From assembly GCF_055900595.2 (NCBI RefSeq), contig NZ_CM148325.1: DNA of 64,000 bases; one strand, given 5' to 3'. The notes below the pieces were generated by a model, which saw only the letters and a program-made list of their open reading frames with translations, searched no databases and was not told the DNA's origin. A program made the translations under genes and the position numbers. Positions within the stretch are counted from its first letter, which is position 1; each line of letters begins with the position of its first letter. Positions 2,995 through 48,911 of this stretch are shown here, piece after piece.

Positions 2995-3876
2995 ATGCAC
3001 ATCACCCTCCGGCAGTTGGAAGTTTTTGCAGAAGTATTGAAAAGTGGATCAACCACCCAGGCGTCGGTGATGCTGGCGTTGTCGCAATCAGCAGTGAGCG
3101 CAGCCTTGACTGACCTGGAAGGGCAGCTTGGCGTGCAACTGTTTGATCGCGTGGGGAAAAGACTGGTTGTTAATGAACACGGGCGGCTGCTCTATCCGCG
3201 TGCGTTGGCACTGCTTGAACAGGCGATTGAAATCGAACAACTGTTTCGCGAAGACAACGGCGCGATTCGTATCTATGCCAGTAGTACTATCGGTAACTAC
3301 ATTCTGCCTGCAGTCATTGCCCGTTATCGCCATGATTATCCGCAGTTGCCGATTGAACTTAGCGTTGGGAACAGCCAGGACGTGATGCAAGCGGTGCTGG
3401 ATTTCCGCGTTGATATTGGCTTTATTGAAGGACCGTGCCACAGCACTGAAATCATCTCTGAACCGTGGCTGGAAGACGAGCTGGTGGTTTTCGCCGCGCC
3501 GACTTCGCCGTTGGCTCGTGGTCCGGTCACCTTAGAGCAGCTGGCTGCCGCGCCGTGGATCCTGCGTGAACGCGGTTCCGGCACGCGGGAGATTGTCGAT
3601 TATCTGTTGCTGTCACATTTACCGAAGTTTGAGATGGCAATGGAATTAGGTAACTCCGAGGCAATCAAACATGCGGTGCGTCATGGATTGGGAATTAGTT
3701 GCCTGTCGCGACGGGTCATTGAAGATCAATTGCAGGCAGGCACATTAAGTGAAGTTGCGGTCCCTCTGCCGCGCCTGATGCGTACGTTGTGGCGTATACA
3801 TCATCGGCAAAAACACCTTTCCAACGCGCTACGGCGCTTTCTGGACTATTGCGATCCCGCGAATGTACCGCGTTAA
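2995..3876 (+). CDS. yeiE: LysR-family transcriptional regulator YeiE
   Basis: 293 aa ORF with N-terminal HTH ([38 protein letters not shown]). Confidence 0.92.
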
Positions 3877-45219: not shown

Positions 45220-46377
45220 GTGACTTATTTCCGTATTAATCCTGTTCTGGCGCTGCTGCTGTTGCTGACGGCAATCGCAGCGGCGCTGCCGTTTATCAGT
45301 TACGCGCCTAATCGTTTAGTCTCTGGTGAGGGGCGTCATCTCTGGCAGTTGTGGCCGCAAACGATCTGGATGCTGGTGGGCGTATGTTGCGCCTGGCTGA
45401 CAGCCTGTTTTATTCCCGGTAGAAAAGGCAGCATTTTTGCACTCATCCTGGCGCAACTCGTCTTCGTGTTGCTGGTATGGGGGGCAGGAAAGGCGGCGAC
45501 ACAACTGGCGCAAAATGGCAGTGCGCTGGCGCGTACCAGCCTCGGCAGTGGTTTCTGGCTGGCTGCGGCGCTGGCACTGCTGGCCTGTAGCGATGCCATC
45601 CGCCGAATTTCCACGCATCCGCTGTGGCGCTGGTTGTTGCATATGCAGATTACCATCATTCCGCTGTGGTTGCTGTACTCCGGCACGCTTAACGATCTTT
45701 CGCTAATGAAAGAATACGCCAACCGTCAGGATGTGTTTAATGACGCGCTGGCGCAACATCTGACGTTGCTGTTTGGTGCGGTGCTGCCTGCGTTAGTGAT
45801 TGGTGTGCCGCTGGGCGTCTGGTGCTACTTTTCCACTGCGCGGCAGGGGGCGATTTTTTCTCTGCTGAATGTCATTCAGACCGTGCCTTCGGTGGCGCTC
45901 TTTGGCCTGTTGATTGCGCCGCTTGCCGCGCTGGTTACGGCCTTTCCGTGGCTGGGTAAGCTCGGCATAGCAGGAACCGGAATGACACCCGCACTGATTG
46001 CGCTGGTGCTCTATGCCTTGCTGCCGCTGGTGCGCGGTGTGGTAGTCGGCTTGAACCAGATCCCGCGCGATGTGCTGGAGAGCGCCAGAGCGATGGGCAT
46101 GAGCGGGGCGCAGCGATTCCTGCATGTTCAGTTACCGCTGGCGTTACCGGTATTTCTGCGCAGCCTGCGGGTGGTGATGGTGCAAACCGTCGGCATGGCG
46201 GTGATTGCGGCGTTAATCGGCGCAGGCGGTTTTGGTGCGCTGGTTTTCCAGGGGCTGCTAAGCAGTGCCATTGATTTAGTGTTGCTGGGGGTGATCCCGG
46301 TAATTGTTCTGGCGGTGCTGATCGACGCGCTGTTCGATTTGCTTATCGCACTGCTGAAGGTGAAACGTAATGATTGA
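45220..46377 (+). CDS. yehY: Glycine betaine ABC transporter permease
   Basis: 385 aa polytopic; GTG start. Confidence 0.88.
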
Positions 46378-47296
46378 ATTTAGCCATGTCAGCAAACTGT
46401 TCGGCACACAAAAAGCCGTTAACGATCTCAATCTCAATTTTCAGGAGGGGAGTTTTTCGGTGCTGATTGGTACATCAGGCTCCGGTAAATCCACCACTCT
46501 GAAAATGATTAACCGCCTGGTGGAGCATGACAGTGGCGTGATCCGCTTTGCCGGAGAAGAAATTCGCTCGCTGCCAGTGCTGGAGTTACGCCGCCGGATG
46601 GGCTATGCCATTCAATCTATTGGCCTGTTTCCCCACTGGAGCGTGGCGCAAAACATTGCTACTGTGCCGCAATTACAAAAATGGCCTCGGGCGCGGATCG
46701 ACGACCGTATTGACGAATTAATGGCGCTACTGGGGCTGGAGCCAAATTTGCGTGAGCGTTATCCGCATCAGCTTTCCGGCGGTCAGCAGCAACGTGTGGG
46801 AGTGGCGCGCGCACTGGCTGCCGATCCGCAAGTCTTATTGATGGATGAACCCTTTGGCGCACTGGACCCGGTAACGCGCGGCGCGTTGCAACAAGAGATG
46901 ACGCGTATTCACCGTTTGTTGGGGCGTACCATTGTGCTGGTCACTCATGATATTGATGAGGCGCTACGGCTGGCAGAACATCTGGTATTGATGGATCACG
47001 GTGAAGTGGTGCAGCAGGGCAATCCGCTGACGATGCTGACTCGTCCGGCGAATGATTTCGTCCGCCAGTTTTTTGGGCATAGTGAACTGGGGGTCCGCCT
47101 GCTTTCGTTACGTAGCGTGGCGGATTACGTGCGTCGCGAAGAACGGGCAGAAGGTGAGGCACTGGCAGAAGAGATGACGCTACGCGATGCGCTCTCCCTG
47201 TTTGTCGCGCGGGGTTGTGAAGTGCTGCCGGTGGTGAACACGCAGGGCGAGCCTTGCGGCACGCTGCATTTTCAGGATCTGCTGGTGGAGGCGTAA
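46370..47296 (+). CDS. yehX: Glycine betaine ABC transporter ATP-binding protein
   Basis: 308 aa; Walker [10 protein letters not shown]; 8 nt overlap with yehY. Confidence 0.92.
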
Positions 47297-47300
47297 GCGT

Positions 47301-48032
47301 ATGAAGATGTTGCGCGATCCGCTGTTCTGGCTCATTGCTTTGTTTGTGGCACTGATTTTCTGGCTGCCTTACAGCCAGCCGCTGTTTTCTGCCTTGTTCC
47401 CACAACTGCCACGCCCCGTTTATCAGCAAGAAAGTTTTGCTGCTCTGGCACTGGCTCATTTCTGGCTGGTGGGAATTTCGAGTTTGTTTGCGGTGATCAT
47501 TGGCACAGGTGCCGGAATTATTGTTACTCGCCCGTGGGGCGCGGAATTTCGCCCACTGGTGGAAACTATTGCCGCCGTTGGGCAGACTTTTCCGCCCGTT
47601 GCGGTGCTGGCGATTGCCGTTCCGGTGATTGGGTTTGGTCTGCAACCCGCGATTATCGCCTTGATCCTGTACGGTGTGCTGCCCGTCCTGCAGGCGACAC
47701 TTGCCGGGCTGGGAGCGATTGATGCCAGCGTGACAGAAGTTGCTAAGGGTATGGGAATGAGCCGTGGACAGCAACTGCGTAAGGTCGAGCTACCGCTGGC
47801 GGCTCCGGTGATTCTGGCGGGTGTGCGAACTTCGGTGATTATCAACATTGGTACGGCGACGATCGCCTCAACGGTAGGGGCCAGCACGCTGGGTACGCCC
47901 ATCATCATCGGGCTTAGCGGATTTAATACCGCGTATGTGATCCAGGGGGCGTTACTGGTGGCACTGGCGGCGATCATCGCAGACCGCCTGTTTGAAAGGC
48001 TGGTGCAGGCGCTTAGCCAGCACGCAAAATAA
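47301..48032 (+). CDS. yehW: Glycine betaine ABC transporter permease
   Basis: 243 aa membrane ORF. Confidence 0.9.
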
Positions 48033-48120
48033 AGGTATAACCTGCGAGCATGACGCCACCAATTCCGCCTAACGCCATAAAAAGGAACAGGGCGATGACC
48101 CCAATTTTAGCTATGCGCAT
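48013..48120 (-). CDS. yohO: Small membrane protein YohO (35 aa)
   Basis: Minus strand encodes [35 protein letters not shown]; 3' end overlaps yehW 3' end by 20 nt; below ORF-track cutoff. Confidence 0.75.
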
Positions 48121-48179
48121 AATGCACTCCTTATGTTAACGAAAGGATTGTACAGTAAAGCGCATTTGTTAACGAATCA

Positions 48180-48911
48180 TTAAATGCCGAGTGGGAAAAT
48201 ATCATGGCCTTGTTCCTGCCAACTGGTAAGTTGCTGCTGTTGGGCAGAGGTTCGATTTTCACCGCACCACACCAGCAATGTACGGCCTTCGAACAGTTCA
48301 GGGCGTAGTTGATTGAGCGAGTGGGCGAGGACATCAATGCGCCATCCTTGTTGACTGGCAATCCAGCCCTCTAGCCACAGACGGGTGGTATCCTGAATAT
48401 TCCAGCCAACCACCAGCGCATCTTTACCTTGTTTTTTACGTGCCGAAGCCAGACAAATGGCGATGTAGTTGATCAGTACGCCGTCGAGGATCGCCAGCAG
48501 CGCCTGGAGAGTCGGTTGTTGGCACTGAAGTCGTCGGCGCAGAGGAATAAACAGGTGCGTGGTGAGTGTCTGGGCGGGGTAATCCTGACCGCGCTCTTTG
48601 ATCCACGTTCGCAGGCTATGCAGATTGCCGCTTTGCAGGTAAGTCAGTAATGTTTCTTGCTGATCGCGCCAGCCGTTCTGCACATCAACATTTTCATTAC
48701 TGAGCAGCATTTTAACTTTGCTGACCTGCACGCCGTTGTCGATCCAGCGTTTGATCTCGCGGATCCGGTCAATATCGGCATCATTGAACAGCCGATGACC
48801 GCCGTCTGTCCGTTGCGGTTTCAGCAATCCGTAACGCCTCTGCCACGCGCGTAACGTGACAGGGTTAATATCACAAAGCAACGCCACTTCACCAATTGTG
48901 TAAAGCGCCAT
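48180..48911 (-). CDS. mlrA: MerR-family regulator MlrA (csgD activator)
   Basis: 243 aa MALYTIGEVALLCDINPVTLRAWQRRYGLLKPQRTDGGHRLF... Confidence 0.92.
   Translation of the reverse strand: MALYTIGEVALLCDINPVTLRAWQRRYGLLKPQRTDGGHRLFNDADIDRIREIKRWIDNGVQVSKVKMLLSNENVDVQNGWRDQQETLLTYLQSGNLHSLRTWIKERGQDYPAQTLTTHLFIPLRRRLQCQQPTLQALLAILDGVLINYIAICLASARKKQGKDALVVGWNIQDTTRLWLEGWIASQQGWRIDVLAHSLNQLRPELFEGRTLLVWCGENRTSAQQQQLTSWQEQGHDIFPLGI

Follow-up and report, generated by a model that had tools for sequence, protein, structure and literature searches.

Convergent gene pairs are a minority among the overlapping genes of Escherichia coli, in which a survey of 4047 adjacent pairs identified 663 overlapping ones, with 75 of these arranged convergently (about 11% of the overlapping and about 1.9% of all adjacent pairs; PMC4161906). 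Across 338 genomes, the same arrangement accounted for 7% of well-characterised overlaps (PMC2478687). The register in which codon position 2 of one gene stands opposite position 3 of its partner, termed phase 1, is the most frequent phase in nature and comprises nearly half of convergent overlaps when 4-nt overlaps are excluded (bioRxiv 10.1101/2025.11.07.687268). At the transcript level, a compilation of the MG1655 excludome, which admits pairs whose transcripts overlap in 50% or more of 58 transcriptomes, lists 165 convergent excludons, the yohO-yehW pair among them (PMC12288877). Such a listing follows almost automatically for any two expressed genes with overlapping coding sequences. Small membrane proteins such as KdpF, AcrZ, MgtS, MgrB and CydX provide a second point of reference, having demonstrated partners with which they are usually co-transcribed or co-regulated, and type I toxin-antitoxin systems, with a dedicated antisense sRNA and often with multiple copies, provide a third. 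The UPF0387 family, finally, has the YohO protein of E. coli K-12 as its type member; in NCBIfam (NF010225) it also goes by the identifier PRK13681.

The locus compared here with these systems lies in a 64,000-nt stretch of DNA (the window; RefSeq assembly GCF_055900595.2, contig NZ_CM148325.1). On the plus strand, yehW (47301..48032) encodes a permease of 243 residues, named glycine betaine ABC transporter permease YehW in RefSeq, with a Pfam BPD_transp_1 domain spanning residues 68-239, and is the final gene of the osmF-yehYXW operon, which encodes an ABC transporter. On the minus strand, yohO (48013..48120) runs from an ATG start codon through 35 codons to a TAA stop and encodes a hydrophobic, single-helix small protein of the UPF0387 family. 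Upstream of it, 59 nt away and on the same strand, lies mlrA (48180..48911, minus strand), which encodes a MerR-type regulator matching NCBIfam NF011617 with 550 bits. The coding sequences of yohO and yehW therefore share 20 nt tail to tail (48013..48032, both strands), in a register in which yehW codon positions 1/2/3 face yohO positions 1/3/2. On the plus strand, the sequence around the overlap reads GCG CTT AGC CAG CAC GCA AAA TAA, encoding the YehW terminus A-L-S-Q-H-A-K, and on the minus strand ACC TTT ATT TTG CGT GCT GGC TAA, encoding the YohO terminus T-F-I-L-R-A-G. Since both stop codons fall within the overlap, 14 of its 20 nt are sense in both genes, and the doubly sense codons are S239-K243 of YehW and F30/I31-G35 of YohO. 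This register, which we take to correspond to phase 123:132, was reported by Rogozin et al. 2002 (Trends Genet) to be enriched among conserved convergent overlaps.

These coordinates bear out the original prediction of a 35-codon minus-strand reading frame, named yohO, in a convergent overlap of about 20 nt with yehW. The same prediction described convergent coding overlap as uncommon, which stands insofar as the class is a minority one, representing about 11% of E. coli overlaps; within that class, however, yohO-yehW is a typical member and displays the most frequent phase. Like other conserved prokaryotic convergent overlaps, it joins two genes 3' to 3' over a short stretch, longer than 15 nt, and recurs in several genomes. 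It differs from them in that one partner is only 35 residues long, with about 15% of its codons overlapped, and in that the constraint is strongly asymmetric toward this small gene.

A chance reading frame, or a yehW gene that in fact ends earlier, would leave no true overlap to explain, and two observations lend this reading some substance: short frames are abundant, with 53 ORFs of at least 25 residues in the surrounding 4 kb, so that the length of yohO is not significant by itself, and the tail of YehW is poorly conserved. Nonetheless, the predicted YohO protein matches the NCBIfam equivalog NF010225 from end to end (residues 1-35 on model positions 1-35) and scores 80.1 bits where the cutoff is 57, with an E-value of 8.8e-23, a match that also supports the gene name, and its orthologues carry precomputed Pfam PF27791 (UPF0387_membrane) matches. 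A Shine-Dalgarno sequence, AAGGAG (48127..48132, minus strand), lies 6 nt before the ATG and is kept as (A/C)AGGAG in nearly every orthologous locus. Together with the period-3 pattern of variation described below and an identical RefSeq annotation in K-12, the family match and the Shine-Dalgarno sequence identify yohO as a real gene. The end of yehW is likewise secure, as the reading frame and not a prediction sets its stop codon, with no other in-frame stop before it. Furthermore, published Ribo-seq data support translation of YohO in the correct frame (bioRxiv 10.1101/2020.05.05.079178), and the same source credits Hemm 2008 with evidence for both its translation and its membrane insertion. 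The Shine-Dalgarno sequence and the period-3 pattern agree indirectly with translation. The protein has also been detected by top-down mass spectrometry in normally growing cells, with a sequence coverage below 50% (PMC12529367). An annotation artefact is refuted by the family match, the period-3 entropy, the Ribo-seq and the mass spectrometry, and we consider this reading practically untenable.

The gene is thus an already catalogued one, and its overlap with yehW, its translation and its listing as an excludon are likewise on record. The peptide encoded in the window is identical to UniProt YOHO_ECOLI (UPF0387 membrane protein YohO), and hence to the K-12 type member, in length, helix, conserved core and genomic position; this sequence occurs on more than 1000 contigs in public collections. 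Nothing distinguishes the YohO of the window beyond its non-K-12 E. coli background. Comparison with the MG1655 RefSeq annotation reveals the same gene in the same geometry, with yehY, yehX and yehW on one strand, yohO overlapping the end of yehW on the other, and mlrA and btsS following. Of 5426 complete E. coli genomes, 5423 contain a 451-nt region of this locus, in a single place each (median 1), with 100% identity to strain Z0117EC0005 and 98.9% identity to MG1655.

Conservation extends well beyond E. coli. Using YehW as query against GTDB representative genomes, we collected 80 species-level loci, which include Escherichia, Salmonella, Citrobacter, Enterobacter, Klebsiella, Kosakonia and Leclercia, and further Lelliottia, Buttiauxella, Cedecea, Trabulsiella, Phytobacter and one Pantoea. 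An orthologue of yohO was found in 79 of the 80, every time convergent with yehW and overlapping it. The length of the overlap is 26 nt (n=41), 20 nt (n=36), 17 nt (n=2) or 14 nt (n=1), and the phase is constant, because all four lengths equal 2 modulo 3. The 20-nt and 26-nt clades are separated by a 6-nt indel within the overlap, which extends YohO from 35 to 37 residues and YehW from 243 to 245. The small reading frame is conserved across strains and genera and its translation has been reported, in agreement with the original prediction.

Of the 79 yohO-bearing loci, 74 encode a relative of MlrA upstream on the yohO strand, 69 of them at a distance of 51-109 nt, and four loci (L034, L050, L055 and L080) carry yohO without mlrA. 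In Mangrovibacter and Shimwellia blattae, which encode divergent YohO proteins, the 20-nt overlap with yehW is kept, and the upstream position of mlrA is taken by metG or an HTH_5 regulator in one and by a TonB-dependent receptor gene in the other. Similarly, the overlap is kept in all 10 of the E. coli contexts listed, two of which have a phage integrase at the 5' end of mlrA. Because the overlap persists where the upstream neighbour differs, the invariant unit is the yohO-yehW junction and not the mlrA-yohO tandem.

The YohO family is restricted to the Enterobacteriaceae and close allies. A phmmer search with YohO against 1.84 billion proteins returned 17 representatives, and since most of these are frameshifted or fused variants of yohO, the family is a narrow one. 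The overlap appears to be old, with a distribution that would place its origin before the split of Escherichia, Salmonella, Citrobacter, Enterobacter, Klebsiella and others. Its age and origin are only bounded, because the single yohO-less relative recovered, Enterobacterales bacterium CwR94 (locus L077), is itself rearranged, with a convergent pta gene downstream of yehW; all YehW homologues listed were at least 77% identical and comprised no outgroups.

To characterise constraint along both genes, site entropy was calculated by codon position over distinct orthologous sequences, the values for the overlap referring to 14-20 nt and all values to related sequences with kinship ignored. Outside the overlap, yohO shows the period-3 pattern of coding DNA under purifying selection, with entropies at positions 1/2/3 of 0.45/0.21/1.06 in the 20-nt clade and of 0.44/0.08/1.11 in the 26-nt clade, and the core codons of yehW are normal, ranging between 0.03 and 0.04 at position 2 and between 0.99 and 1.17 at position 3. 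In the 24 nt of yehW immediately before the overlap, by comparison, every position is relaxed, with position 2 at about 0.70. Within the overlap, entropy reaches 0.74-0.83 at the sites that are position 3 for yohO and position 2 for yehW, and remains at 0.09-0.51 at those that are position 3 for yehW and position 2 for yohO. As variation in the overlap concentrates at the wobble sites of yohO, the selected side is the C-terminus of YohO.

Several observations accompany this asymmetry. In the 26-nt clade, 9 of the final 10 residues of YohO are invariant, whereas the final 10 of YehW vary. The yohO-less CwR94 locus encodes a YehW of 241 residues with an unrelated tail beyond the conserved FER motif, and the alignment of YehW with OpuA (7AHC), the nearest relative of known structure, stops at residue 234. 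The C-terminal F-I-[LV]-[RH]-... segment of YohO appears to be under selection, and the last 5-8 residues of YehW would be a passenger antisense reading of it. The original prediction had proposed constrained co-evolution of the two genes. The overlap is indeed less variable than the yehW codons that precede it (mean entropy 0.31-0.57 versus 0.89-0.91), but this constraint is one-sided, with the YohO frame dominant.

The reading that we favour, with a probability of roughly 0.85, is that a known small-protein gene is held in an ancient, self-locking tail-to-tail overlap in which the YohO frame dominates and 3' antisense transcription is obligatory. The overlap is self-locking because separating yohO and yehW would damage a 3' end. 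Selection would act on the YohO C-terminus, and the YehW tail beyond the conserved permease core would follow it. The discovery value of this locus is small, as yohO-yehW is an ordinary pair and the increments reported here (how widely the overlap is conserved, the asymmetry of its constraint, the lack of terminators throughout the family and a palindrome conserved at the promoter) would not surprise a specialist. It nevertheless provides a worked example of a short tail-to-tail overlap, maintained throughout a family, in which a gene of 35 codons sets the sequence to which the C-terminal tail of a large gene conforms.

The YohO protein itself consists of little more than one hydrophobic segment of transmembrane length, with a Kyte-Doolittle 19-residue mean of up to 2.41 (residues 8-26), flanked by its only charged residues, R2, K5 and R33. 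Among 49 distinct orthologues, G19, G22, V23, M24, L25, G27 and Y28 are invariant, and 48 of the 49 share K5, M15, A16 and I20; the YohO of the window has every one of these core residues. The core, M-A-x-[GS]-G-I-[GS]-G-V-M-L-x-G-Y, contains a small-xxx-small-xxx-small face at positions 18, 22 and 26 ([GS]18-G22-A26). Small-residue helix faces of this kind usually mediate helix-helix packing, and their invariance in YohO suggests packing of its helix with a membrane partner or with itself. The PDB contains no solved structure that includes YohO.

A packing surface of this type raises the possibility that YohO belongs to the YehZYXW transporter as an accessory or regulatory transmembrane subunit, comparable to KdpF, AcrZ or MgtS. 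Like KdpF, AcrZ, MgtS, MgrB and CydX, YohO has fewer than 50 residues and a single transmembrane helix with a conserved face, and its gene adjoins a transporter operon. This adjacency holds in every yohO locus found, whether from YehW or from divergent YohO queries, and even where the other neighbour has changed; on this reading it would stem from a common function. The linkage is nonetheless confounded, since the overlap itself locks the two genes together. Unlike the genes for those small proteins, moreover, yohO is not co-transcribed with the transporter, because it occupies the opposite strand and has a conserved promoter block to itself. On balance, a role of YohO as a transporter subunit seems unlikely.

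The small size and hydrophobicity of YohO, a single helix of 35 residues, together with a yehW transcript that is necessarily antisense to yohO, are also reminiscent of type I toxin-antitoxin systems, in which the mRNA for a hydrophobic peptide is controlled by an overlapping antisense RNA. The features of such systems, a dedicated antisense sRNA and, often, multiple copies, were not found at yohO by Rfam search or copy count. The gene is single-copy, with a median of one place per genome over 5423 E. coli genomes, and shows vertical inheritance with fixed synteny across genera; Rfam returned neither an antitoxin sRNA nor any other RNA family within 1.1 kb (no family at E<=1 in 47500..48600). 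The scan gave no dedicated promoter for an antisense sRNA, the sole promoter-like match on the plus strand being a weak one (9 of 12 positions, with 1.2 such matches expected by chance), and the detection of YohO in normally growing cells (PMC12529367) also argues against a toxin. This reading was rejected on the basis of copy number and the Rfam search, and we regard it as highly improbable.

For the favoured reading, yohO would be transcribed from a conserved promoter of its own just downstream of mlrA, converging on yehW. An alignment of 78 distinct upstream sequences yielded the consensus TTAATGGTTCATTAACA-N14-TATAAT-N~10-TAACA(T/A)AAGGAG-N6-ATG. Within this block, in which conservation is at least 90%, the window presents a putative -10 hexamer, TACAAT (48147..48152, minus strand), that reads TATAAT in most species and would imply a transcription start near 48140. 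A sigma-70 scan made no call here because the -35 element is weak, and the assignment remains putative owing to this poor -35 and the missing call; the conserved block may represent a promoter dependent on an activator or on sigma-S. The -35 region of yohO and the stop codon of mlrA are spanned by a palindrome, TTAATGATTCGTTAA (48169..48183; consensus TTAATGGTTCATTAA), which is a possible operator and persists in the four mlrA-less loci. This pattern occurs once in the whole window against 0.67 occurrences expected, a count no higher than chance, so that its weight comes only from conservation across species. An exact 10-nt repeat, TTCGTTAACA, is found at 48167-48176 and again at 48134-48143.

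At the 3' ends, the window scan revealed no site resembling an intrinsic terminator between yohO and yehW, Rho-dependent and unusual terminators being invisible to such a scan. By the same rule for intrinsic terminators, a terminator-like site appears in none of the 79 loci over the 250 nt that follow yohO, and in 6 of the 79, each time a weak one, over the 300 nt that follow yehW. The single terminator-like hairpin on the yohO strand (48103..48088) was discarded as a candidate: it falls inside the yohO coding sequence and includes three G-U pairs, and three hairpins were found where 2.1 are expected by chance. With no intrinsic terminator after yohO and at most weak ones after yehW, both transcripts must run into the partner gene; moreover, complete yohO and yehW mRNAs must overlap because their coding sequences share 20 nt. 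The two transcripts would hence form an obligatory 3' antisense overlap with the geometry of a convergent excludon, and their ends would probably be generated by Rho or by processing. The C/G ratio is about 1.45 in the first 100 nt of both untranslated 3' extensions, a C-richness compatible with Rho-dependent ends.

The yohO-yehW pair thus resembles the convergent excludons reported with ExcludonFinder (PMC12288877) in its convergent orientation, in its overlapping transcripts and in having no terminator between the genes. It differs from other convergent excludons in that the coding sequences overlap and not the UTRs only, and mutually exclusive expression or RNase III processing, the hallmark of a functional excludon, is putative here. 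The transcriptional interference put forward in the original prediction persists in a weaker form: the terminator survey and the excludome listing are in agreement with transcripts that invade the opposite gene, and a regulatory effect is putative.

A stronger version of this proposal would hold that the terminator-less tail-to-tail layout is under selection because transcription of yohO from its conserved, possibly regulated promoter represses osmF-yehYXW and vice versa, through colliding polymerases or through cleavage of the paired 3' RNAs by RNase III, resulting in mutually exclusive expression of the small protein and the transporter. It draws on the contrast between the 79 yohO-bearing loci, none of which has an intrinsic terminator after yohO, and the yohO-less CwR94 locus, in which a hairpin of 7 pairs (6 of them G-C) directly 3' of yehW is strongly terminator-like on both strands. 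It also draws on the presence of the pair among the 165 convergent MG1655 excludons, on the conserved palindrome at the yohO promoter, which suggests regulated transcription, and on the maintenance of the arrangement across genera. However, coding constraint and the physical lock suffice to explain the conservation of the overlap, antisense control does not need 20 nt of overlapping coding sequence, and the RNA folds of the two 3' extensions are no better than those of shuffled sequences (z-scores of -1.35 and -1.31). We therefore view a regulatory function of the overlap as unlikely. Extended to the Enterobacteriaceae as a whole, the palindrome-bearing promoter would drive terminator-less transcription of yohO into the 3' end of osmF-yehYXW and operate as a regulated antisense switch between this transporter and the small membrane protein YohO, which may also act on the transporter; this more elaborate scheme is quite unlikely.

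Compared with these regulatory proposals, the self-locking overlap with a dominant YohO frame remains the preferred reading, and the same features, a missing terminator and a promoter palindrome, make yohO-yehW a testable locus for the regulation of a transporter operon by convergent overlap. As regards expression in other species, an RNA-seq table for Shigella flexneri that lists genes affected by anaerobiosis/FNR gives yohO a value of -2.96 (PMC4229854).

The yehYXW transporter operon has an 8-nt co-directional overlap between yehY and yehX (window 46370-46377) and a 4-nt gap between yehX and yehW (window 47296-47301), an ordinary translational-coupling geometry that contrasts with the convergent yehW/yohO overlap at the end of the operon. 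Comparison of the species-level loci collected through YehW revealed that a 6-nt indel within the coding stretch shared by yohO and yehW divides a clade with a 20-nt overlap, formed by Escherichia/Citrobacter/Salmonella-type loci (L002-L011), from a clade with a 26-nt overlap, formed by Enterobacter/Klebsiella/Kosakonia-type loci (L012, L017 and L019, together with others). This single indel extends both proteins together, from 35 to 37 aa for YohO and from 243 to 245 aa for YehW.

Only one of the 80 species-level loci, that of Enterobacterales bacterium CwR94 (L077), bears yehW without yohO. Directly 3' of yehW, this locus presents a classic hairpin of 7 pairs, 6 of them G-C (positions 3249-3266 of the locus), which is terminator-like on either strand and is followed by a convergent pta gene. 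The locus may offer a picture of the yehW junction without yohO, but it is itself rearranged.

On the minus strand, the region between the mlrA stop codon and the yohO ATG holds a block (window 48134-48183) that is highly conserved across 78 distinct upstream sequences, including those of loci lacking mlrA. It contains a palindrome, TTAATGATTCGTTAA (48169-48183), with the mlrA stop codon inside it, an exact 10-nt direct repeat, TTCGTTAACA, with copies at 48167-48176 and 48134-48143 (spacing of 33 nt), and a minus-strand -10-like hexamer, TACAAT (48147-48152), which reads TATAAT in most species. In E. coli K-12 W3110, genomic SELEX has located an RpoE-holoenzyme peak of type D and intensity 4.0 within yehW (coordinate 2214150), with yohO and yehX as its flanking genes (PMC5493296).

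Two E. coli assemblies (GCA_012463465.1 and GCA_012100835.2; L093 and L095) carry a phage integrase gene (Phage_integrase and Arm-DNA-bind_2 domains; locus positions 433-1719) adjoining the upstream side of mlrA, which is shortened to 233 aa in both; a prophage has therefore inserted at the 5' end of mlrA. Both yohO and its overlap with yehW are intact in these assemblies. Among complete E. coli genomes, a single one, BY68, matched just 76% of the yohO-region query, split over two places, a pattern that suggests a break between yohO and mlrA. Of the matches to the yohO region, two sit on records typed as plasmids.

The contig of a record titled Chryseobacterium sp. 18061 (L078) harbors enterobacterial yehW, yohO and mlrA genes, with YehW and MlrA showing 74% and 76% identity to E. 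coli, and probably represents a mislabelled or contaminated assembly. In Citrobacter amalonaticus AUH_CA_2023_1 (L007), yohO is frameshifted by one surplus T within a T-run (about 3260-3290 of the locus). This frameshift is likely a homopolymer assembly error, and not the mark of a pseudogene, because the frame downstream of it still encodes the conserved C-terminal part of YohO.
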